DNA of 62,087 nucleotides, filler included, from Sluysia triapertura (GCA_046118255.1; 5 parts of 5 records of this genome joined end to end with filler, not necessarily neighbours in it), one strand, 5' to 3'; shown: positions 9,360-54,379, counted from the whole stretch's first letter. A program made the numbers and translations. The notes: generated by a model not told the origin, from the letters alone.

Positions 9360-10160
9360 TTATTCATCAATGTATGCACCGATATTATCTTTGCTATTTA
9401 ATCGGCAGATTGTTCAGGCCGCTGGTAAAACCCTAACGAATGATGAGTGTCAACGAATTCCCGGAATGGCACTTTTGCAGCATTTTAAGAATTGAATTCT
9501 TTTCCTATTAAAAGTTATACAAATTGCGGAAGATGTGGAAGTCAGTGGGGATTATGTCGGGTGAGTATGAAGATGAAAAAGAAGTCCCAACTACAATATC
9601 TGCAGTTTTTCCATAGTTGTTTGGGCTATACGTGATGTAGCATTATCATGCACTAAGATATGAGTTGGTCAAGGTTATTTTTCTTTAAGTTTTCTACTAT
9701 TTTGTCGAGTTGGTTTCAGAAATTTTTTGCTGTGAGATTTCTGGGTATGTTTTTGTTATTCATCCTTGTTCAACCACTGTGATAGATGGATCCATTTCTC
9801 ATCACAAGTGACAATTCGATTCAAAAATTTGTGACGAAACGCTTTGGTTTCTGCTTTCATTCAATTTGACAAAATAATTTGCGTAGTGATACTATTGTTA
9901 GACTTCATAAAATGGACTGACCGGGATCGAACCCGGGACCTCTCGCTGCGCACTTCGATGCTCTACTCACTGAGCTATCAGCTTGTCTAACTATTTTAGA
10001 TTATTATAGTCAATATTACTAAATGGCACTTTAGGCCTTTACCACAACACTATAGCCAAATAAACTATTAATGTTTCGTGCGATCTGCGATGTTGTAGTT
10101 CCATGCAAGAATTCATACTTCATAATAGTGAGAATTTCCGACTGTTTCATTTCAGCATAA
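9360..10160 (-). mobile_element. Mariner (DD34D) transposase remnant, interrupted by tRNA-cassette element copy 1
   Basis: Minus strand: MKQSEILTIMKYEFLHGTTTSQIARNINSLFG (HTH start), FLNRIVTCDEKWI, LVHDNA, YSPDIIPTDFHIF, and terminal NIGAYIDE*. Contains stops and deletions. Confidence 0.85.
9896..10049 (-). mobile_element. tRNA-Ala-cassette element, copy 1 (154 bp, TSD CTAT)
   Basis: Termini TGTT...AACA. CTAT at 9892-9895 and 10050-10053. Contains TAGCTCAGTG A-box, GGTTCGATCC B-box and TCAGTCCA-TTTT. Splits the mariner ORF. Confidence 0.9.
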
Positions 10161-10858
10161 TTAATTTTTAAAAAATATTTAATATTTTGTAGAGCTTACA
10201 GTGTTTTCTTTAAGTATGTGAGATCTGCAACTTCCCAACATGTGAAACAGAATGGTAAAATATTAAGCCAATGTAAAATAATAAGCTGCTAAAGTAAATT
10301 TCATATTCGCAAACTCAATAATTCCATCTTATTCTTATCGTTTTGCTTTAATTCTTCCATTTCTTCACAGTCAGTAAGTGCACATATTTTTGTCTTCCAA
10401 TAACGACGAATTTGCTTTTACCTCATTTTAAAGTAGCTTTTCCTCAAAAGTTTCAAAATTATTGTTTTCAGTTCTTGTTTTACCACTTACATTTATATTT
10501 ATATTTAATTTAAAAAAACTTTTTCCTATAATCAAATTTTGCAAAATAAATACTTTAATGCCAAACAATTCAAAAGATTAATTTAAAACTATGTTGTAAA
10601 ATTTGTTAGATAAATATTTAATTATATTTACTTACAAAAGAAAGTAGCTTATATTTAAGTAAATTTATAAATATTTTATCATTCATTAAATTTTATTTTT
10701 ATTTATAGAAAAAAATCAGTTTAATTTGAAGTTAATTTAATTATATACTTAAAGCATTAAATACATAGTTAAATATAGGCTTGTAGGGAACTCGTCATTC
10801 GGTATCAATCACAATTCATCACACAACATTCACTATAACTCATCTCACAAAATTCAAC

Positions 10859-14449: not shown

Positions 14450-15000
14450 TTAAGATGAAGTAAAATATTTAAAATTACTTAGTAACGATACAACTGAAGA
14501 ATTAGAATGTTATAAATGCTTTTACACTCAAATGCTAACCTTGCAAAAATGAATGTTACTGGAGTCTTTTCACTTCTTAATGCAAGATAGCAGAAAGTGT
14601 CTTCTCCAGGAGCATATCATAAATGATTTTAATGATATAATATGTTCTTTATATGATATTCAGAGTTTTGCAAAAATATTAATGAACATGTTGTCAATCT
14701 TCAGAAGGTTTTGAATTGTTTGAAGTTCAACATATTATCAATAAGTATATATCGCAAAGGCGAAATGAAGTTTACTGAACATGTATTAAGTAAAGATACC
14801 ATTGGAAATAAAGGTAATATGATTGTATCCAAACCAACTAACCATGTTGAGTTGCGCATGCTTCTAGGACTCGCTGGTTATAATGGTCAGAAAATCTGTT
14901 CTATCAAGAATTTGTAGAACAGATGAATTTAAATGGAATAAACTCTACGAGAATGATTATCAACGATTAAAATTGGACTTATGTAAAATAAAGGCATACA
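14450..15000 (+). mobile_element. Ty3/gypsy reverse transcriptase / connection domain remnant
   Basis: HVVNLQKVLNCLK...PTNHVELRMLLGLAGYN...EFKWNKLYENDYQRLK. Matches the gypsy P....ELRSFLGLAGYY and F.W motifs. Heavily decayed. Confidence 0.65.
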
Positions 15001-17881: not shown

Positions 17882-20800
17882 CTGTTTAAAATCATCCTCG
17901 TTCTTAACGGTATAATTTGAATAATCGTGGATTTTTTTTAATTTTTCTTCCACGAAAGACATTTTTGGTAATGGAAAACCATCTGCTATAACTCTGCGTT
18001 TCCAACTGTCAAATTCAGTCGGTAGAAAATTCTGATTTGATACAAATAATAATCTAAACATAGTGACAGATCGACCTATTCTTAATTTCAGTCCCGCGTT
18101 AGTTCTGAAAATAGCAATAACAATCGAGTAAAATAAACAAATATAAACTTCAAAAGTAATTAATAGTACCAGATTTCCGCAAATGTAAGCCTACTCGAAA
18201 ATAAGGCTTTGGGCTTATTATAGGATTTATTTATATTTTGTTATTGTTGGGGTAAAAAGGTCTAAAGTGCCATAACAAAATAAAACTGTTAGACGGGGCT
18301 GATAGCTCAGTGGTAGAGGTCCCGGGTTCGATGCCCGATCAGTCCATTTTACGAAGTCTAACATTATAAATTTCGTAAAAATCAATTTGATACTTTTAAA
18401 TAAATGTTTTGTGTTTAAAATTATCTTATTTTCTACAAATAATACAAAATTTTAGATCCATAATGAAGAAACGAAGTTATACTGCAAAAGAAAAACTTGA
18501 AATTCGTCAAAAATTAAAAGAAAACAACGGAAACGGCTCGAGAAGTGAATGTTAATAATAAAATGATTCATAAATGGAGAAGCAATGAAGATAAGCTTTT
18601 AAACACCAGTAATAAATCAAGCACAAAAAACAATCGGAAGTGATAGAAAAGCATAATTATGTGAGTTAGAAGACATGCTTTATGTGTGGGTTCGTGAAGA
18701 AAGATCAGTTTATAAGCGAATAATTTATTTAAATATGCTAAGATTAGGAATAGAGTGCTGAATTACAAATATTAACAAAAGTAAGCAACAGTTGTTCTTT
18801 GAAATTTCTAAAAAGAAACAATTTATCATCGAGACGAATCACAAGCATTAGTAAAGAGGATAACAGATCCGCAGAAAAGCGAGAGAAGAAAATATCATAA
18901 ATAATAATATATTGTTATATGTTCCCTTATGTTTTATTTAACTCGAGTATAACCCAGGGCACATTTGGAATTTTTAAATTTTCCAAAATTTCACGTTTAT
19001 GTGGGCCTATATTTGAGGAAATCCGGTAATAATAAAAAATCGTGATGGAAAACCAAAAATACAGTAAAATATCGTTTTATTACCATTTCAGATCTTATGG
19101 CATTAAAAGAATAATTGCAATAAATCAAGTTTTTAAGAAATTAACAAAATTATTAAATTTTTTGACAGTAAAAATATTGATTAAATCGAGATATGACTGT
19201 AATTAGCAATTTCCTAATTTTCTCATTAACCAACAGCATCTTTACTTAAAATGTATCTTATAATTTATTAAGTTGCTCAATGTATTTACCAGATAAGCTT
19301 GAGGTATTTAAATTGTTTTACAACGAAGACAAAAATGAATTTTCAAAATGAAGACGTAGTAATGTTTTGATTGGTTAATTTTAACAATTACAGTGTAATT
19401 GAGCATTATTATTATTATCTGTTGTAAAACATAAAGTACACTTCAATTATACAAATTACTAAAATCTGATACATGCATGCACACATACATACATCTTTAG
19501 CAGAAAAAATAAAACAATATTTTATTATTTTTTGATTTTAATACTTTATGTCTTCGAAAAATATCACTGCAGAATTAAATATTCATTAAACATTAATTTT
19601 AAGCGTATATTATCGACTGTATTATTATTATATTTAAATAATGTTTCCCTAAGTCGTTTTAAGAAAATGTTTCATAGATATGATACTTTACTTGTGAAAA
19701 AATTGAAATTTGTTTTCAATTACATTTTCATACACGTTGCTTTAGTTCTTCATTAATGGCTTATATATATCCCATTGTTTGTTTCACAGTTACTTTGATA
19801 ATTTAAGTTTCGTTGGTTCACATTTACTTTTTTTAATCTGTAATGACAACGTGATGTTTACGTAACAACATAATTACTCCCAGAAATCATTTTAATATAT
19901 TAAATCTATATAATTTAAATACATTTTGCGCTTGTAATTTAATATTAATATATGAAAATATAACGAGGGACTATCTAATAATTTCTAAGTACTAAAAAGT
20001 ATTAAAAAAATAGCTTAGAGGTTGTGTAACATTAATAAGATTATGATCGAATAGTTTGTAGAGTTTAATAGCATTTTTTTCTTTTATTGTTTAATGTTAA
20101 ATTCTTACAATTATTGATAATTTTTCTGTACTATATTAATAATCTACAATTATTGTGTTACATAAAATACTTTATAGAATTATTTGGTCAAAAGATATAA
20201 AACTGAAGAAATGAAGTAGAAAACATTCAAATGTCATCAAATTCTTGCGAGTTTCTGGGTGCGTTAATACTGCGAAATTATTTTCCTTACATACATAAAA
20301 CCTTTGAACATGTTTAATATAAATATTGTTGATAAAAATAACGCACTGAAAAAAAAATATTTCGGAAAATTTCACAACAGTAACCAATGACCACTTTTTA
20401 CCTAAAAACACGACAATTTTGAAAATAAGAGAAAAATAAATATAAACTGATATGTTGCTTATTGAAATTTAAGAAAATCACACTTTATGCAGTCATGAAA
20501 AGTCAGCATACAAAATTAGAATCCTTGACTTATAAATGAATTTGGCATCGCAAAATAAGTAATTGTAATAAAACAAAAATATGCTTCAATTTTGATGTAA
20601 ATCAATTTGGAATTAATTTCGTTTGAGAGATACCTATGCGACACATTAAGCCAAAGAATTTCTCCCGATACAACAATGTCTAAACAGTTAAACAATTAAA
20701 ACTTATCACTTAAATTGTAATAAAATCAAAAGATCATATTTAATCCTGTTTTCATTAGATTATAAATCCAAAAATAAAAAACCTGTCTTCTAACGTTATG

Positions 20801-23988: not shown

Positions 23989-24063
<75 letters not shown>
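23989..24063. repeat. (AGT)n microsatellite at contig start
   Basis: About 25 AGT units. Confidence 0.95.
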
Positions 24064-24942: not shown

Positions 24943-27900
24943 ATATTCGAATGGTGGTATTACAAGAAATATGGCACATCATTTATCGAACAAATTTCTC
25001 TCAATCATATTTCCCCGTACTTGGGAAATGGTGAAGAAGAAATTGAAAGTGATAATCAAGAAAATACCAGTACACCAAATTGTATTCAAGGTTGGTTTTA
25101 TTACAAAATTTTCAACAAACAAATTATTGCCACATTGGTCTGCCTCAGATGCTAAAGAGTCTTCTTCTGTCTTCTGCTTGGCTAATTTCGACCTTACATT
25201 GTATTAATACTTGAATTATTCGAATTGGAAACATGCAGAATATTTATTGAACGTGTACATGGGATGGACATAAATAAACTCATATGCAATAAACACAAAT
25301 CAGTAAACAGATGAGTTTACACAATAGTTATCTAATATTTCTATCACAATCAAAGTTTACCATAATAGATCTACCATCTATGCATTTAGCCTAGTCAGAA
25401 TATTTGAGTAAAAGAGATTTGTTTTCCACATTTATTGCCATATTGTCAAGGTGTAGTTTTCCTTCAATCTACAGTAAATCCCCTCCCGAAGAACGAGGGA
25501 TTACGTTATACGATATTTGAATTACTTATACATTTGTAAGTAATGCGTATTTCAATTAAAATGAAATTAAATAGAGAATTCATAGACCTGATAATTTCCT
25601 TATATTAGGTTATTGCAATCGTTCTCGTCATTATATGAAACTATTTGTTTTACAAAGACTTTTGATGTTTGGCGAAGTGTTCTGCTCTACAAGATTAAAG
25701 TAATCGTTTTTGCCTATATTATTTGTTTGCCTTTTTTGTCACGTCGACAAAAAATCGCATTTTTGACACCTTCTTTTCGCCTTTTTTAATCGAGGTCAAA
25801 AAGCGAGATATTTGTGCTATATTAAAGAAGACGCTATAGCTGATAGAACTGTTTGGGATTGGTTTGCCAGGTTGAAACACGATAATTTCGACCTCAACGA
25901 TGTTCCTCGTTCCGGAAGATCAGTCGAGATGGAAGAGGACCAACTCGGAGATCTTTTGAAGGAAGATGGCTGCCAGGCATGCAGAGAATTATGCGAAAAG
26001 ATGAATTGTGATTTTGCCACCTTTGATATATAATCAAGTCATTGATATTGATTGAAATACATTTCAATTTAGATTGTAAATTATGGAGAAATCCCTACAG
26101 TTTATTCCGAGGTGCAGAGTATAATCGTTTAACAAAAGAGACAGGAAAAGAACCTTTAACATACTACGACATGAATTTGACTGCTCAGGATCACCAGACA
26201 TTGTTTACTTGTGAATCGGATCAAGGTAAACCGGAATACGAATGTAAGTTTGAAATTTTGATTAAGTTTAAACTTCGGTTTTAAGTTTCAATTTTAATAA
26301 GTTTCAATTTCAATAAAGAGACTGCTCGGGAATCGAACTTGGGACCTCTCGCTTCGATGCTCTGACCAATAGGCTATCAATTTTATTTTATTACAGTCAA
26401 TTATACTATCATTATTCTAAATGGAACTTTAAGCCTTTACCTCAACATTTGCAATGCAATAAAATATATATTTTTTGAATAAAATATTTTATGAATAAAA
26501 CGAATCAAGGAAAGATTTAAATTTGAGAAACATCGGAACTCCAGAATTAGAAAAAAATGATTGGTTAAGTAGCAAGATCTTTTAGATAAACGATTCTATG
26601 CGTATTCCGATTGATATTAATATTTCGTAAGCCTAAAAATATTCTTACTTAAACTTTTGTTTCAAATTATTTCTTGAAACATATTTATATATTTTTATTA
26701 GTGTAATTAAAAACTGATGCAAAATGTAAAATAAAACAAAAATAAAGTTTACCGCTAATTATTATTATATTATTGTAATAATTATATAATAACTATTATA
26801 ATATGTTTGCTTAAGGATTGTGTTGTTTAAAGTTATAAAATGTTTATTCAACTTGTAAAACTTTTGTCAATTATTATTCACGTTTATATTATTCGAAACT
26901 CGTTAGGTAAAATTATTCGTCAGATGAAATCGCATTTTAATTCTAACAACTCATGTGAAAATATCAAGGTCTTATAATTACTAAACACATATTGAGCTGA
27001 AGTTTTGAAATAATCGTTCAATTTAAAGTCACATCAGCTTCATAAAATTTGAATTTTTAATTATTATTTTCAATTATAATTTTGTGTTACTCAAAGCTCA
27101 TGTGGAAAGAAGAAACATTGTAGGATTGTACACACTGATGTTTGTCCAGGAAAAAATTTAAACAACATTTAAAATATTTGTCTCACGTGAAGAAAAAGCA
27201 AAAATCTAAAATAATTTCTAATATATGTGTGGTAAATGCAACAATTATGTTTATCTTTTACATCCAAAGAAGGGAATAATATGTAATGAATATGTTTCAT
27301 TCATGTAGTTCTAGAGTTTCATAACTGATTATGATTCATGGATAGTGTTAATGGTCCACTTCACAATGCACAATTTTATTTCTAACAAAACTTTAAAGTT
27401 TAAAAAGACATTAAAATCAAAACAAATCAAATTTTAAAACCATTGTGGATAATATTATGAAGCAATTAAATTTATTTCAAGATGTTAGCTGATTATTCGA
27501 AAGTGATGTATATATTGAGATTAACAAATAATAGTTAGATTCAAAATTTAATATAAAATTTGATTTCAAATTTATCTCGTTTATTTTTAAATTATAAAAC
27601 TTTTCGATTATTAACTTTATGAGATTTATAAGATTTGGGAGATTTGGGAGAATTTATCAAACTTCATAAATACAATACAAATAGAATGAAATCCAAAACT
27701 CGAGAGTCCGCACTTTTCTAACACCAAACTGATCTTGAATGTAATAGAGTATTTGGTGTGGTATAAACGATTCCATAGAGGAGAATGTTTGACTTTGGTC
27801 GAATCTGTATAATTTTGAAATGAAGCAAATTTTACGCATAGTTATGAAGAAGTGAGAGTGAGAAAAAGAGTTATAGTTAAGTATTAAAAGAAATTGAAAT

Positions 27901-32329: not shown

Positions 32330-33941
32330 ATGCCGTTTGTGGCTTCTAAAGCTGAGAAATGTCAAAGATGCGAAAAATCTGTTTATGCTAAGGAAAGAAT
32401 GGAGGCATTTGGATTAGTTTGGCACAGATTATGTTTTAGATGCAAACTGTGTGACATGACTCTAAATTTGCATAATTATGGTCAAGATAAAAGTAAATTT
32501 AAATTTAAATGAAATTAAAATCAAACTAGAACGTGATGTTAAAAATATGATGATAAGTGCAGAAGCACCGATATCACTTGCAAAAGTGCCCGAGTCATTT
32601 ATGAGAGAAACAACATTATGTACGTGGATTCTTACAGAACGTGATGGTAAGATAATTACATACGATTTACCTTGTATCACTTTAGGTGTTATTTTTATTT
32701 CAAAGACTATTTCAATTTCAAAAGAACATGATGGCCAGATCCAGAGAGCATTAAGCAAATCAAGAAGATTAGAACATGAAGCTACATTACGAGAGGACGT
32801 TTTGTGCGCAGGTTACGAAGATTTTGTACCTGAATTTTTAGAGTATCTAGACATTATTTGTTGTTATATCAATATTTTGTATCTTAAAAAGCATTTTAAA
32901 ATTATTATCCTTTTATTGGAAAAAGTTAATATCAATGTTTTGTGTCTTGAAAAAGATTTTGAAATCATGATACTGATATTGCAAAAAGCTAAAAATTCCA
33001 AAGTTAAAGTAATATGTTATGCAGGATTATGGAGTTGTTTGAAATTTTGTGAATCATTCGATATAGGCCAAGATGTTTATGAAATGTCAATTGATAAAGA
33101 TAATTATGATGATAGTTATATACATAAAACAGTTATAATCGATATTTCGTCTAAACCTTATTTCAAAGATTATAACTCACCTAAATCGAATGATTTTCAA
33201 ATTAGTTTTAAAGATTACTATAAAGTTGTAGAATACGATAGTTTAAACGTTAAGGCACCTTTTACATTCTATGTAGACCAAGGTGTTTATGAAATGTTAA
33301 TTGATAAAGATAACTATGATGGTAATTATGTACATAAACCAGTTATAATCGATATTTTGTCAAAACTGTATTTCAAAGATTATAACTCACCTAAATCGAA
33401 TGATTTTCAAATTAGTTTTAAAGATTACAATAAAGTTATACAATACGATAGTTTAAACGTTAAGGCATTTTTTAGACGAGCTCTATTTAAGGAAAGCCTT
33501 TCAATGCCTGATAGAGCTATTGATGATTTTAGAATTGTGTTAATACAGAAACCCGAGGATATAACTGCGAGGTTGATGCTGGAAGAACTAAATCAGCGAT
33601 GTGTTTTTAAATCAATATTCGGTCATGATTCGTTAGACTATACATTTTTATTATTTATTCTTAGCTATTCCGAATCTCTTCATTTTCTCGAATTATCTAT
33701 AATTAACAAACTATTAATGAATTATATAATACATGATCCTGTACATATAATTTTTTACATTCGTGTTAGATTTTTAATCGAATATATTAATTGTAATTGT
33801 TATTTGAAATTTATTTTGTTCAGTAAAAGTAATTTTAGCAATAATGATTTTTCAAAAGACCTTAAGTCTTATTTTCTATTAAAGTTAACTTTAAATTTAA
33901 GTATGAAATTAATTTTCGCCTTAACCCGGCCATTTCAATAA
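32330..33941 (+). CDS. Chimeric 524-aa protein: truncated LIM, unknown region, duplicated 70-aa unit, TPR-like helix pair, F-box-like motif
   Basis: Exon 32330-32492 (CQRCEKSVYAKER...WHRLCFRCKLC), a 37-nt GT-AG intron at 32493-32529, and exon 32530-33941 join in frame. NVKAFFRRALFKESL..DRAIDDFRIVL..P is TPR-like; SLDYTFLLFILSYSESLHFLELSIINKLL is F-box-like. Confidence 0.65.
33056..33467 (+). repeat. In-frame tandem duplication, period 210 bp
   Basis: 33056-33257 and 33266-33467 are near-identical (QxVYEMxIDKDNYD...YDSLNVKA twice). Confidence 0.95.
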
Positions 33942-37123: not shown

Positions 37124-38029
37124 CAGTATCTCAATGCAAGCGATGCTTTGGATAAAATTAGATATAAAAGTTTAACTGATCCATCATTGCTAGATTCAGC
37201 TAAAGAATTACATATAAAATTGATTCCGAACAAGGATGCTGGTACTTTAACAATAATTGATACTGGTATTGGAATGACAAAAGCTAAATTGATAAGTAAT
37301 TTGGGTGCTACGCACGATCCGTACAAAAACGTTTATGGAAGCTTTACAAGCTGATGCTGATATTTCTATGATTTGTCAATTTGGTGTTGGTTTTTATTCA
37401 GCTTATTTAGTGGCTGATCGTGTGCTAGTGGTATCTAAAAGTAATGATGATGAACAGAACATTTGGGAATTTAGTACTGGTGGTTCGTTTACTGTTCGTA
37501 TTGAAGATGGTGGACCACTAGGTCGTGGTACAAAGATTATATTTTATATGAAAGAGGATCAAATATAATACATTGAAGATCGTAAAATAAGGCACTTGCA
37601 ATTTATCGGTTATTTTATTAAATTGTATGTTGAAAAAGAACATTATGATGAAGAAGATGATGAAGAAAAATTGAATGATACTAAACCAATAAGGACTTGT
37701 AATACAGGTGATATTAGTCAAGAAGAATATGTTGAATTTTATAAGTTATTGACTAATGATTGGGAAGATCATTTGGCTGTAAAGCACTTTAGTGTTGAAA
37801 GGCATTTGGAGTTCTGAGCTTTGTTTTTCTGCCCAAATGTGCACCGTTTGAGAATCGCAAAAAACGTTATAATATAAAATTGTGTAAGGAGAGTATGATG
37901 TATAATTGTGAAGATTTGATTCCAGAGTATTTTAACTTTATGAAAGGTGTTATTGATAGTGAAGATTTGCCATTGAATATCAGTCGTGAAATGTTACAGC
38001 AAAATAAAATATTGAAAGTAATTCGTGAG
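37124..38029 (+). pseudogene. HSP90: HSP90 pseudogene, truncated by contig end
   Basis: [76 protein letters not shown]. Several frameshifts, TAA/TGA stops and deletions; no introns seen. Confidence 0.95.
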
Positions 38030-45077: not shown

Positions 45078-46635
45078 CGATGCACAAATCATAATTAATA
45101 ATAATGGTACGTTAATAATAATGATTAAATTTGTTAGTAGTAGTAATAATGATAATAAATAATAGTAATAACTTTGTGCATAGATTAAATTTGTTCATAT
45201 AAATTTTGTTAATAACATAAATTGAATTTGTAAGTAATAATAATAGTAATAGTAATTTTAGATAGTAGTAGCTGTAATAAATTTGTTAATAATGATAAAT
45301 ATTGTTCTCAGCCTAAATATTCATGTTTTATTAAATTTTTATTACATATACTTTATATTCAATCACATTTTAATATGATTTCTCTCGATTATAATGCTTT
45401 TAATTTTGAAATAGTTTTTATATTACAATATTCTTTCTATTCTGTCCAATCTTTAATTTAAGTTGATTTTAATCGAAAATAATGTTATTAATTTTTAATT
45501 ATGTACTGATTTTATTCAATCTCAATTTAATATAATTTTCACTCATATTAGAATGATCTTCGTGTTCTTAAAATTTAATGTTATATTCTTTTTATAGAAT
45601 CTCATTTAAAAATGATAATTTATTTGATTTCAATTTAAATTAATTACTATTTGTTATTAAATTTTAAATTTATACTAACTCTATTAAATCTCATTTTAAA
45701 TTAATATAAAGCATTATAATCTTAATGATAATGATTTTATTTTTACTTTGAAATAATTTTATTTTTTAAATTAAATTTAAAAATTAAATAATTGAAAAAT
45801 TAAAAATTAAAAGTTGAATATTATGTTACAATATATCACCAAATCGATATTGTGTACTGTAATTAACTCATATTTAGGGGAAATTGACTATGTTTCACAT
45901 AAGAACTAGTATAGAAATATATTGGTTAGAGGGAGAAGATGAATTATAAGATCAAAATTAAATATTTATTGGCTGCCGATTCTAAATGGAGAAAAATAGG
46001 ATATAAATAAGATCGCCTTTTTAGGTGTACCAAAATATTATTTACCATCTATTTAATTTTTTGTCGTAGTCAATAAATATTCTCTAATTTATATTTTTAC
46101 TGGAATATTAGACTCAAACTTATACTAAATGTATCACTTTTGCATCTGACAATCTAGAAGTGAGTTAAAGTACTCACGAGAAGCTATAATCAGCGCACAA
46201 TTATATGACATTATCTGCACTTTATAAACTAAAATCACTTTATAGACGTGAAAATCTTTCTTAAAGTTTATAAAATTAATAGAAATTATATAAATAAAAC
46301 TTTCAATACTATTGGTGTAAAAATAAAATCAAAATGAGTTTTGTATTCATTTGAATATTCAATCAAATAATTCTACATTTATAAAAGATGTTTTCAATTA
46401 TTTGAGATTTCTTTAATCCCTGTAGTTAGCATAACTTTTTATAATTATTTTCTGGATCTTTATAATCAATTTTGTTTTAAAATTGGTTTCATATTTTGTC
46501 ATAACGAAGACATTTTTGTTACGATTTTCAAGATAGGATTATGGATTAATTAGATGTTCATGACTTCAATATTACTTGGTTTCTTTGTCGCACAAAAAGG
46601 TTCTTTTGATTAGCCTTTAGTGTACGAATGTTATA

Positions 46636-46775
46636 TATTGGGATGTAAGCCTAAAGTGTCATTTGATATAATGGACTATAATAATTTACAATTGTTAGAC
46701 GGGGCTGATAGCTCAGTGGTAGAACAGCGAGATGTCCCGGGTTCGATCCCCGGTTAATCCATTTTATATATAACA
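46636..46775 (+). mobile_element. tRNA-Ala-cassette element, copy 4 (diverged)
   Basis: TATTGGG...GCCTAAAGTGTCATTT...TGTTAGACGGGGCTGATAGCTCAGTGGTAGA...GGTTCGATCCCCGG...CCATTTT...TAACA. Flanks TATA/TTTA (imperfect TSD). Confidence 0.85.
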
Positions 46776-47399: not shown

Positions 47400-48311
47400 C
47401 AATAGTTCTATCTTTATTTGATTCAAAAGAACGTATACATGGTATTTTATTTAATAGGTAACAAAACGACATTTTAGGAACATAAAAACTAAATTTATTT
47501 GAATAGTAGACTATTAAAATTTTAAAATTGAAGCCGTCAACAATGAAAACTGAAAACGCAAAATGTTTCTTTTCATCTTCAACCCCCATTTTCCACAAAA
47601 TTTTCTGCTGCAATTCGCGGATCCACTTAAGATGTTTACAAACTAAATTAAAAATTAATAGATATATAAAATTAACACTTACAAGGCTACTCTTCATATT
47701 TATCATAATATACTCTTTAAAAATTGTAGATTGATTACCACCAAGTATATCTATGGTATTGTGGTCGTATTTCCAACGAATATGATCCGAAGTCTAAATC
47801 TGTTTGATCATCATCATTTATCAATAAAATTTGATCCAAATAATCATATTTTTTCAAATAAACTAATTTATCAAACAAGTCTTTCATTTCTTCATGATTC
47901 ATGTATTGACTTCGATAACCTACGATCGAATTGGTCTGAAATTTAGTTTTTATATTTGAATTGGCTGTAATTAATTTAGCGCGTTCATCGTTTTCTGGTG
48001 AATTGTTATAAGAAAAATTGTGATCTTTATCATGACATAATTCGTATTCCAATTTTTTTAGCAATCTTTGACGTATTTTTGTATTTACTCACAAGACAGT
48101 TTTTAAACTTTTTGTCTGAATAACAATCTGGATCATCATCAATTTTATTATCATTGTAGTTATCATAACCGTTATTTTTATTGCCATCACTAGTGATAGT
48201 GTTTAAGGAATGATCAACATTAATATCGTATGGAGCCGGTAAAGTATCATACTCATCACTTATAATGATTTCTTTGTCATTATTAAATGTAGCTTTATTT
48301 TTCTTAAACAA
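47400..48311 (-). pseudogene. Fragmented unknown gene with short-intron remnants, directly downstream of the GSK3 fragment
   Basis: Overlapping broken ORFs 48030-48311, 47735-48064 and 47293-47706, and a GTAAGT...TTTAG mini-intron near 47645-47682. No family recognised. Confidence 0.35.
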
Positions 48312-48323
48312 TTTTGGTTGTTT

Positions 48324-48854
48324 TTATTTCAATAGATTAGTAATAGTTAATTGAGAATGAATTCTGGAATGCGAAGGGATATCCACCGACACAAATTCAC
48401 TCCTCACATTAGTGCCAGAAGCAACTTGATCAGTAAAATTGATCGACATAAATGAGTTATTTCGAATGTGAAATCGTAAAATTCGTGTTAAATTCTGAGG
48501 AACACAGTTCATAATCGAATTCAAATAATTTTCATCTTTCTCTTTATTATATGAATAATGATAATACGGTAATGTAGTAATATGATTATTTGACAATGAT
48601 CTCATGATGTTTAATTCTCTGTTTTTATAGCATTTATCTTCTAAAACTTTTTTAAAAGCATTATGTTCATTATCATCGATAAAACCTTCAAAAACTACAC
48701 AAAATGAACCGCTAGCAACATTTTTTAGTTCATGTACTGACATAGTTACTTTTTCATTATCTGGAGTACGAAACATTACAATGTCGTTCAGAAAAGAAAT
48801 CAACACTTTATCATCCACGTACTGTTTATCTGCTTTAGTATCAGATGTTTTCAT
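48324..48854 (-). pseudogene. GSK3: GSK3/shaggy kinase N-lobe fragment fused to unrelated sequence
   Basis: SGSFCVVFEG...AFKKVLEDKCYKNRELNIMR...KEKDENYLN..MNCVPQ matches GSK3 subdomains I-V. Homology stops before HRD/DFG. Confidence 0.85.
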
Positions 48855-49229
48855 AACTTTTTGTCAAATGATCAGTGATGTCGTATACGACTGTTCTGGC
48901 ACCCTAAAATTTTTATAATAATTGAGCTGACAATTTTTTACTAATGATGGTAAAGTATTTGTGAAAAAAATGAATATTGAAAAATCCAGTGAGCTATTTT
49001 TAGTCTGTCCAATCAGACTACGTATAAGTAAAATTAGGAATTACTAGTTTGATTGGATGATGTTTCATAATTGGATTTACATGAAAATGAGGAACAACTG
49101 ATGACTGACCATCATCAGCGCTGACAGCCTAATAAAAATGTGGCATAGACTGTCAACACTGGTGGTGGCAGTAACCAGATTTATCATCAAAAGGTAAGTA
49201 CTTTTATTTTTAATTATTTATTAGCATAA

Positions 49230-51023: not shown

Positions 51024-52489
51024 TAACAATGATTTTATTTCTCAACTATTTTAAAGATTTTAAACACTTTATAAGATTACTAAAGAATCTCAAATGCTCA
51101 TCGATGTTCCAAAATACTTAAAGGTTACTAAGATCTTAAATGATCTAAAAGTTCAAAAGTTCAAAGGTTCAAAGGTACCTTAATGCTTCTAAAGGTTTTT
51201 CAAGTCCATCTCAAGTTTCCATAAGGTCTCAAACCCTAATATAGGTCTTTGGAACTCCAATGTATTCTTTAACTGTTAACATTATTAAAGATGTTTTTAC
51301 TTTTATTATTCTTATTCCAATAATGTTTGTCATGTTCAATCCATCACTTTGTCAATTTTTCCTTCATTTAATAGTTCGACATATTTGATCTACAATTGGG
51401 CAATCCCAACAGTACTTTCTCATTGAAACTTTTCTTGATTGATGGATCTGAAGAAAAACTTCGAAATAGCCCGAACCACCAATATTGCGAAGTATGCTTA
51501 TTTCCAGGTCAAACTGCAGGAACAATTGAAGTGCAAAGTGTGTCTGGGTACATTCGTCGTTGGAGCCTTGGGGTCATGAGACTCCGAGAATGACAAGCTT
51601 CTCGAGGCACTTGACTTCCACAAGACCGAAATCAAGACCCTGGTACGACAGTCCTACAAGGTCCCTGAATAAAAGAAAGTAGATTACCTTCCTTCTCTAA
51701 AAAGGAAGGTAATAATAATATCTTTTAAATTTAATATCATTGATGAGTTTAAATCTGGAATTCTTTCCACCTATCACAAATCGAGATTAAGTTTGAAATA
51801 AACCTTAACCGAACTTGGAAATGACTCTATTCTGGAATATATTTACTCAGAAGTGACTTCCATAACAATCAAATAAATATTAAAAAAGATCTCTTGGAAT
51901 TAAACTTTACTCAAAGTATAGCTCTCTAATAATTATAAATAAAAGTTTTTTTAACGCACAATCACTTCTTCTTTTAACATATACCAATAATATTTTCATG
52001 AGTATATGTTCAAATTAAACAATGTTAAATCTCATGATTCATGATCCATGATTCACGAGGATGTCAATCTTCTTATGAGTTTTTTAATTTTAATTATGAT
52101 AATTTTAATAATAGGAAAAATAATATTGGAAAAAGAAGAAATTTCTTTCTCCTGCAATAGCCATTTGATTAGTCGGAAATCTGTATAAGTGTTGATTCAC
52201 AAAAATTCAAGTCAAAGAGACAATTTACTAATATATCATTATCATTTCTGAATTTTGTTAATTCTAATTTTATTCGGAAAGTTCATAGTAAACTATTAAG
52301 TTTTTTAAAGTAGGATTGATGATGTAACCTCGGTTATTTCTTAAAATCTAAGTAAAATTTATTTCGATCATAATTGTTGTGCTGATTTAATGAGGGCTGA
52401 AGTCTTTTTTAAAATAATCCGATAAAAAGAAATTCAAGGCTTAAGCAATCTTTAATTTATAAAATTTTAAATTTTATTTTCGTTTGAAC

Positions 52490-52637
52490 TGTTAGACTTC
52501 GTAAAATGGACTGACCGGGGATCGAACCCGGGACCATCGCTAAGCAGTTCGATTGCTCTACCACTGAGCTATCAGCCCCGCATAACAATTTCATTTTTAT
52601 TATATTCAATTTTACCAAATGGCACTTTTACCCAACA
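52490..52637 (-). mobile_element. tRNA-Ala-cassette element, copy 5 (148 bp, TSD GAAC)
   Basis: GAAC at 52486-52489 and 52638-52641; termini TGTTGGG...GTCTAACA. Confidence 0.92.
52507..52578 (-). ncRNA. 72-nt tRNA-Ala(TGC)-like core of element copy 5 (pseudo-tRNA)
   Basis: GGGCTGA TA GCTC AGTGGTA GAGC A ATCGA ACTGCTT AGCGA TGGTC CCGGG TTCGATC CCCGG TCAGTCC A, followed by TTTT. Acceptor, D and T stems are intact with G3:U70 and A73; TGC is central in the loop; the anticodon stem is poorly paired. Confidence 0.75.
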
Positions 52638-54379
52638 GAACCTTTGTTTTTTGCACTTATTTTCACATTGTTAATAAACTTTGGATATAAATATTAATAT
52701 TATAGTGTTCAATTATTTTTGTTCTTGTGAATAATTTGTTAAATTTCTAAAAAGATTTTAATAAAGAGAATATGTATAAATAAGAGATAAATAAGTAATA
52801 AATAAGCTTTCTTCGGGACACCGATTAAATTTATTAGAAGATAAGCCGTAATTTTTAAAATATTAACGCATAAACGATATAAGAATATAGTTACGTAACA
52901 TAGTAATTACGTTGTCAATGTTAGGAATAGAATTACACAACACGGTGACTATGTTGCACAATCATTCCATAGATATAGACACGCTTATGTAATCGAACCT
53001 ATTAAGTAGCTCATTTTGCTCGTGTCACTGGTTTAATAAAATACCTAATAAAACCTAAGATCAACAAAGGTTATAAAAGTTCTTAAGTACTTAAAAGTTT
53101 GCAAGCTACTTAAATTGCCTTGGGTTTAATATTTTAAAAGTTTTTAAAATGATAGTTGAGTTCTTAAAGGGTCTTGCAATGTTATAATGTATTCGGAAAA
53201 TCTAAAACATTATTAAAATGATTCTTGAAACTTTCGTCTTAATAATTCTTCTCTTTTTGATACTTTATTATGTTTTTATTTTATTTTACATCACCATTTA
53301 ATGTATACAAGTTCAGCTTGTATTAGATGATCTGGTATCCCGTGCACAAGTCTTATCGATACCCACTTTTTTATGCATTTTTCCAATTTTATATTTTAAA
53401 CTATTTGGTACATTGCCCAAAGACTTTTAATATAATGAATTAATTTCCAAATTTGAATTAAAGAGGATTTTGTAAATCAAGTGTTTTGCTTCATTTTCGA
53501 TATAGTAACATTTGACATTAATAAAAATAAATATTTAGAAAATGAAACAATTTCGATTAATTTAATAATTTTATTAAGAAATTCATTGATTATTAAATAT
53601 TTCAAAATTTATCCTATATTGCCTCAAAAGGTTAAAAGATTCGTACAAAATGTGTTTTGTTTTTCAAAAACTAAAAATGTTTTCTTAAATTAAGTAAATG
53701 TTTAATCTTAATTTTAATAGTAGGGATAAAGTGTAATAAAGAGCTAAAAATATAAAACATTCAAAACATCAAAAAATAACTGTAATACAATTTATTATAA
53801 ATTTACTATAATAAATTTAATTAATTTTCATACATACAAAAGCTAAGTGATTTTAAGCTCAATTAGTTCTTCTTAACTTGAATTATGAATTAACATTAAC
53901 CAAAAAATAAATAACTTTATTTAGTACTTTATATAAATAACTTTATATCGTACTTTAACACTGAAACACTTTTAACACCGAAAGGGATAATTTCAAAATA
54001 TAATAAGCACAAGTTCGTGTATAACCATTTATTTTATAAAATGTAAAAAATTCGACGTATATACACCTGTATTCTGTTATTTTTGTAGTATCTAAATGAC
54101 ATCATAGTTTATTTTAGATTTACGCATACGTAATTTAGGTACTTAATTACTAAAAAGACTTAGTAACTTTTAATTGACAAATAGTTGTATAATATGTGAA
54201 TATAATTAATAAAAATTAAAAATTAAGTACTTGTTTAAATATTTAGAAAAGTAATAAAAAGCATTTGTAACAAAAATAAAATTGTATATTTTAAAGCATT
54301 TACAATAAATATTTTACTTACTTATTAAGTAGTATAAATCATATTTGAAGTCTTATTTATTCATTTTAATTTCAAAATA

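Follow-up and report, generated by a model that had tools for sequence, protein, structure and literature searches.

The window and its host

The window, i.e. the whole stretch of 62,087 nucleotides that was analysed, has a GC content of 25% and is made of five contigs with N44-12bp-N44 joins between them. It contains matches to ST7, to the Plus-3 domain (Rtf1-like), to SCAI and to Hsp90, which show that the host is an animal. In a tree of ST7 computed from 33 rows and 167 columns (the window and 32 sequences chosen from 120 hits, 31 of them named, with no triclad among the named rows), the window and its nearest relative share one clade (99/93) with every one of the 10 named flatworm rows, where they lie apart from the parasitic group. 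The host is likely a flatworm, and we infer that it is a free-living one such as a planarian.

Other features lie scattered over the window. The third contig begins with (AGT)25 (23989-24063), long (AAT)n microsatellites are common, and a repeat search together with TRF returned microsatellites for the most part, without any LTR pair. At 45323-45700 there are four 51-bp repeats, only loosely alike, at spacings of 80-157 bp. An intronless Hsp90 piece with stop codons (37296-38029, +) is probably a processed pseudogene, and a 491-aa open frame (32466-33941, +), which has no Pfam match, carries 63-bp and 210-bp tandem duplications and an end that looks TPR-like by eye. Frames at 47735-48863 (-), with no matching Pfam hit, resemble a decayed protein kinase N-lobe, which we take by eye to be GSK3-like. 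Finally, a stretch at 14657-14914 (+) resembles a decayed Gypsy-type reverse transcriptase: it gave no Pfam match, no relevant PDB match and no homolog, its match being at feature level only, with a cluster in which 13% of the members carry RVT_1.

A family of five short repeats

The preliminary description had reported five related elements, one on each of the five contigs. Blastn and a profile built from the five copies recover all five (119-154 bp; Table 1) and no sixth in the window, the next match scoring 7.8 bits. The copies themselves score 99-145 bits with nhmmer, a circular result as the profile was built from these same sequences; its best match in 10 shuffled windows reaches 0.8 bits. 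Pairwise identity between copies is 63-89% and the density here is five copies per 61 kb, or about one per 12 kb. The limits first given for the focal copy, 52486-52641, are correct and comprise a 148-bp element on the minus strand with GAAC on either side; none of 38 plus-strand frames near it gave a coding match. The 18k copy sits antisense between the Plus-3 domain exons of the Rtf1-like gene. The 26k copy is also antisense, within an intron of ST7 that holds, about 280 bp away, a second mariner-like relic (25767-26030, +; weak HTH_48, E = 0.023). Exact scans of metagenome contigs with two patterns gave no match, nor was any found in viral contigs.

Table 1. Coordinates of the five copies in the window, with the parts of the focal copy and the host site of the 9.9k copy
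Feature	Position	Strand	Remarks
Focal copy, 148 bp, read as a solo LTR	52490..52637	-	TGTT...AACA ends; blastn, profile, alignment
Focal copy, left TSD, 4 bp	52486..52489	.	GAAC on +
Focal copy, right TSD, 4 bp	52638..52641	.	GAAC on +
Focal copy, 5' part before the tRNA head, putatively U3-like	52579..52637	-	conserved block 52617-52628, AT-rich spacer, altered inner TGTTA motif 52580-52587
Focal copy, core derived from tRNA-Ala	52507..52578	-	full acceptor stem (G3:U70, A73), D arm, T arm; 10-nt anticodon loop, not assignable; Rfam RF00005 51.7 bits; ARAGORN tRNA-???
Focal copy, Pol III box A (putative function)	52561..52571	-	
Focal copy, Pol III box B (putative function)	52519..52528	-	
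Focal copy, T4 run adjoining the core, with 13 nt left to the end	52503..52506	-	possibly a leaky Pol III terminator
Focal copy, 3' end of 13 nt, putatively U5-like	52490..52502	-	terminates in AACA
9.9k copy, 154 bp	9896..10049	-	inside a decayed mariner transposase gene; CTAT TSDs exact (9892-9895, 10050-10053)
Decayed mariner transposase gene that houses the 9.9k copy; internal deletion	9600..10150	-	outer limits approximate; HTH_48 E = 3e-4, below the curated cut-off; transposase motifs read
18k copy, 119 bp	18245..18363	+	TTAT TSDs exact; anticodon arm and part of the spacer deleted
26k copy, decayed	26309..26447	-	3' end, T4 and duplication gone
46.6k copy, 140 bp	46636..46775	+	begins TATTG; 1-mismatch duplication TATA/TTTA; anticodon arm shortened

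Anatomy of the unit

Read in the sense of the tRNA, the unit runs from TGTT through a conserved block, an AT-rich spacer, a tRNA-like core and a T4 run to 13 nucleotides that end in AACA. The TGTT...AACA termini are present in three of the five copies, the other two being decayed, and boxes A and B are recognisable in all five. The tRNA head lies 50-65 bp inside the 5' end of the unit, the aligned copies giving the same distance as that reported initially. The T4 run was described as directly following the tRNA; this holds for four copies, in which it lies 10-13 nt before the end of the unit, but not for the 26k copy, from which it has been lost. Likewise, the inner part of the consensus proposed at that time, TGTTAGACG, is exact in two of the five copies but altered in the focal one.

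The G3:U70 pair carried by the core is a mark of tRNA-Ala. The Rfam tRNA model matches three of the five copies at E up to 1 (51.7 bits for the focal copy, 32.3 and 30.0 for the others) and gives no match in the remaining two, while ARAGORN predicts one tRNA gene in the focal copy, with the anticodon '???'. In the available part of the Schmidtea mediterranea tRNA tables (PMC7962491; all but one supplement file searched), a 14-nt word of the T arm occurs in seven rows, six of them Ala and one Gln with an isotype conflict flag, and two element-specific words are absent. By these features, the core derives from a tRNA-Ala and is unlikely to decode. The element had been presented as a tRNA-Ala cassette, which is right as to the origin of the core; it is not a working tRNA-Ala, because the anticodon is unassignable and its arm is deleted or reshaped in four of the five copies (the 18k copy lacks the arm, the 26k and 46.6k copies have a shortened one, and that of the focal copy has a 10-nt loop). 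Two candidates were discarded: a functional tRNA-Ala, by the broken anticodon arm, and an element that targets tRNA genes, by the position of the tRNA within the TSDs.

An inner 8-bp motif just before the tRNA head is reverse-complementary to the last 8 bp at the 3' end (for example 18289-18296 versus 18356-18363) and pairs with this end in the centroid fold of the 9.9k copy; the predicted folds of the copies are no more stable than those of shuffled sequences (z from -0.8 to -1.5). The present unit, read as an LTR, may have been lengthened at its 5' end from a shorter LTR of about 95 bp; alternatively, the tRNA-like core may be enclosed by paired RNA ends.

Target-site duplications and the mariner insertion site

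Three of the five copies are flanked by exact and mutually different 4-bp duplications (CTAT, TTAT and GAAC on the plus strand), and at these copies duplications of 3, 5 and 6 bp fail to match. Since the chance agreement of two 4-mers in the window is 0.0098, at least three agreements among five copies have a probability of about 9e-6, which bears out the three duplications listed in the preliminary description. Of the two other copies, the 46.6k one has a duplication with one mismatch and the 26k one has lost an end.

The 9.9k copy provides a second line of evidence, as it interrupts a decayed mariner transposase gene. A word-based homolog search with the mariner piece yielded no relatives, whereas an index-free search found eight, of which the five whose best stretch covers about the whole piece were used and the three with short stretches were dropped; HTH_48 is clear in all five. 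Each of them aligns best across the insertion site when a 4-bp duplication is assumed (range tried, 0-8 bp), the ten residues behind the site scoring 14-27 at 4 bp and -6 to 11 with the best alternative. The frame to the downstream DDE motif permits a duplication of 1, 4 or 7 bp, along a path that crosses a deletion and is weak by itself. Some contigs of the public run considered below join both mariner sides without aligning to the element, the letters in between not being given, and this run contains further mariner copies. The 9.9k copy is an insertion with a 4-bp duplication.

Other copies in a public run

A single public run, X1, contains this stretch; it may be the source of the window itself and supplies other copies of the family, not independent support. 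With the region 9746-10199, which includes the flanks, 8,394 contigs of the run align. Over the element the depths add up to 20,619-1,402,706, over the mariner flanks to 8,597 at most, and the eight single contigs listed have depths of 4.5-22; these depths are not copy numbers and are taken only as a sign that the family is very large.

At the best-supported loose ends (6 of 380 listed), 114 and 121 contigs end at the 3' border and 126 contigs end 9 bp inside the 5' border. The flanks at these borders are AT-rich, with an agreement of only 0.42-0.52, so that they have no tail in common. Many copies thus end at the same borders with unrelated flanks, which upholds the initial observation that neither a poly-A nor a LINE-derived tail is present. 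No shared inner sequence, PBS or PPT was found in the majority of contigs at the six loose ends listed.

The deepest joint among those listed (15 of 73) leads from 10049 to 9896 in four contigs, i.e. from the exact 3' end of one copy to the exact 5' end of another in the same direction. This is the shape of an LTR-inner-LTR arrangement, the inner letters not being given, and the depth is close to that of a single locus (88.6 summed over the four contigs, about 22 each). With a copy every 12 kb, the same end-to-start joint could also arise from solo copies that lie next to each other. The 15 joints listed include no opposite-direction join of full ends (four versus none, P = 1/16 at best) and no deep shared inner contig of the kind expected from a young and abundant parent.

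Probable origin as solo LTRs of a Helenus-type element

The five copies are best explained as the solo LTRs left by a miniature LTR retrotransposon of the Helenus type, which probably relied on the enzymes of a Gypsy element for its movement, a reading to which we give a probability of roughly 0.7. The TGTT...AACA ends with a 4-bp duplication indicate a retroviral-type integrase, as proposed at the outset. According to the available part of PMC2836005, a Gypsy-type integrase is marked by TG...CA ends together with a duplication of constant length, 4 bp. A solo LTR is the simplest account because the copies bear this mark and because the SINE and Ginger readings discussed below fail. The solo-LTR/TRIM option of the preliminary description, with its analogy to Cassandra, was the correct lead, the layout being that of Helenus TRIM LTRs. 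Its suggestion that the combination had not been described does not stand: Helenus (TRIMp3; Kojima 2024, PMC10886601) consists of TRIMs with tRNA-derived sequence in the LTR, with 4-bp TSDs in animals and with solo LTRs.

Helenus elements have primer sites in common with Gypsy, and they retain boxes A and B while the anticodon arm decays (PMC10886601). In the available part of that paper and its supplement, animal Helenus LTRs measure 104-323 bp, every animal row with a value gives a 4-bp TSD, and the LTR runs from a TGT start through a leader, a tRNA-like core and a T run to a short end in ACA. The LTR:inner ratios found there range from less than 1:1 to about 21:1 and some families have no recovered inner part, so that both solo-rich and solo-only families exist. 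Gypsy elements are abundant in planarian genomes, according to the available part of PMC11410931.

Judged by its sequence, the unit would work like a Helenus solo LTR in all three features open to inspection in a solo copy: boxes A and B of tRNA origin within the LTR (in five of five copies, with the core inside the unit bounded by the TSDs), TG...CA termini together with an LTR size of 119-154 bp (TGTT...AACA in three of five), and a 4-bp TSD (exact in three of five, its length being fixed at one site by the five mariner relatives tested). Strict membership would call for a parent with two LTRs, a PBS and a PPT. The window contains no same-direction LTR pair around an inner part, and none of its five copies is followed at the 3' end by TGG or preceded at the 5' end by a G-rich run of purines; this absence of PBS and PPT is expected of solo LTRs.

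This is probably a new family of the Helenus type, from a phylum that the Helenus list lacks, and a motif search sets it apart from the families listed. In word searches, made without alignment, of the available part of the supplement of PMC10886601, five of six element motifs are absent from the Helenus consensus set, the sixth being a generic T-arm word, and three further motifs have one match each, in three unrelated Helenus families. None of the listed families matched the element by the motifs tried in this way.

The following model of the lifecycle can be drawn. The parent would have the order LTR-PBS-short inner part-PPT-LTR. The core would act as a promoter and not as a decoding tRNA. 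Transcription by Pol III would begin at the tRNA head in the 5' LTR, pass the T4 run of this LTR in some of the rounds and terminate within the 3' LTR. Since the transcript would thus extend from one LTR to the other, the tRNA-like part would be the repeated R region. The parent RNA would be reverse-transcribed and integrated by a Gypsy particle, and recombination between the LTRs would leave a single LTR between TSDs. Solo copies are proposed to be dead ends, because their Pol III RNA would lack the first 50-65 bp. Pol III transcription is unvalidated for Helenus itself too (PMC10886601).

Alternative origins

The copies might instead stem, as solo LTRs, from a long or autonomous Gypsy element that had taken up a tRNA-derived piece into its short LTR. 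The integrase and the way in which solo copies form would be as above, but the parent would not be a TRIM and would need Pol II. This is unlikely. Although the ends, the TSD and the solo state fit any Gypsy LTR, most of the unit consists of a Pol III core and T4, the boxes being the parts kept in all five copies, and the layout matches Helenus LTRs part for part in the available part of PMC10886601. A long parent would leave no short inner contig, which is consistent with run X1, and not a few Repbase LTRs hold tRNA-like pieces, Kojima having retained only elements of less than 1 kb (PMC10886601); the same paper argues, however, that a multi-kb element is beyond Pol III transcription.

It seems quite unlikely that the unit of about 150 bp is itself mobile, as a single-LTR unit without long TIRs or a parent with PBS and PPT, either by being copied out of arrays arranged head to tail or through excision and insertion by an integrase of the Gypsy or Ginger type. 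We know of no precedent for integrase-made single units at this scale. Such an element, which we consider an improbable object, would be a Pol III element mobilised by an integrase, outside the classes of SINE, TRIM and MITE. Its copies would number in the thousands, and each could give rise to a tRNA mimic that has an acceptor stem of the alanine type but lacks an anticodon. All five copies in the window and the X1 loose ends listed (6 of 380) are single units in a dense family; but Helenus families themselves reach LTR:inner ratios of 10-21:1 or have no recovered inner part, according to the available part of PMC10886601, and at 10:1 about 80% of the LTRs would be solo, so that five solo copies out of five have P of about 0.33 (hand calculation). 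The pairing of the inner 8-bp motif with the 3' end in the 9.9k copy would suit a self-contained unit, against which stands the lack of excess stability of the folds over shuffled sequences.

A non-autonomous Ginger-type DNA transposon (MITE) with a tRNA-like passenger, the second option raised initially, is very unlikely. In the available part of the description of Ginger1 and Ginger2 (Bao 2010, PMC2836005), TGTNR termini and 4-bp TSDs are found as in the present element, but the TIRs are of 40-270 bp (Ginger1) and 50-180 bp (Ginger2) and the targets are preferred ones (CCGG/CCGT; RTATAY). Here the exact inverted repeat is 4 bp, with 5-7 matches in the first 20 nt of the three intact copies, and the TSDs vary: in this small sample none of the three exact ones is CCGG/CCGT or the TATA core of RTATAY, while the site with one mismatch has TATA on one side.

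A SINE of tRNA origin that has an unusual leader at its 5' end, or a scatter of tRNA pseudogenes, would account for a core with boxes A and B, very many copies and a SINE-like size, but is largely refuted, as was argued from the start. Sequence that lies upstream of the Pol III start cannot travel with a SINE, yet these copies retain the 50-65 bp before the tRNA head that Pol III RNA would not carry, besides having a fixed 4-bp TSD, a sharp AACA end and no tail.

Implications

If the copies are indeed solo LTRs of a Helenus-type element, Helenus/TRIMp3 would reach a seventh animal phylum, probably via another independent capture of a tRNA promoter. The tRNA gene predictions in this genome would also be inflated, and Pol III boxes would have been placed within introns (Rtf1-like gene, ST7). 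A dense and solo-rich family would be a good place to ask whether Helenus LTRs are Pol III promoters and how the T run of the 5' LTR is passed.

Comparison with known systems

Among DNA transposons, GingerRoot differs from the present element by 6-bp TSDs and TIRs of 100-150 bp, according to the available part of PMC6839031. The tRNA-derived SINEs (SINE2) share with it boxes A and B of tRNA origin, a small size and a high copy number, whereas its tRNA head is internal and it has TG...CA ends, a fixed 4-bp TSD and no tail.

The closer comparisons are with TRIMs. Cassandra and Ajax likewise have a Pol III promoter derived from a small RNA inside the LTR, but they carry 5S rRNA and not tRNA, Cassandra in plants and Ajax in nemerteans, where it has 5-bp TSDs (PMC10886601). 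The ta-TRIM of taeniid cestodes (Koziol 2015, PMC4558846) is a flatworm TRIM with 4-bp TSDs in 52 of 57 cases and many solo LTRs. Compared by description and not by sequence, it differs in having transcripts from an LTR promoter, often spliced, and the available part of that paper mentions tRNA only as primer and describes no LTR core of tRNA origin. No report of Helenus, or of tRNA-derived repeats of its kind, in flatworms was found in the openly readable literature, which Repbase and Dfam lie outside.

One difference from Helenus lies in the host, likely a flatworm here, as the available part of the Helenus supplement includes no Platyhelminthes, Schmidtea or Dugesia (PMC10886601). With Helenus families such as Helenus-1_LiLo, Helenus-1_LAn and Helenus-2_CGi, the element shares a tRNA-derived core with boxes A and B in a TG...CA unit, preceded by a leader and followed by a T run and a short end. 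The two also have in common, as far as the available part of that source goes, an LTR size (119-154 bp, within 104-323 bp), a 4-bp TSD, a non-functional anticodon and solo copies. If the preferred reading is true, as is probable, this is a range extension of Helenus and not a new mechanism.
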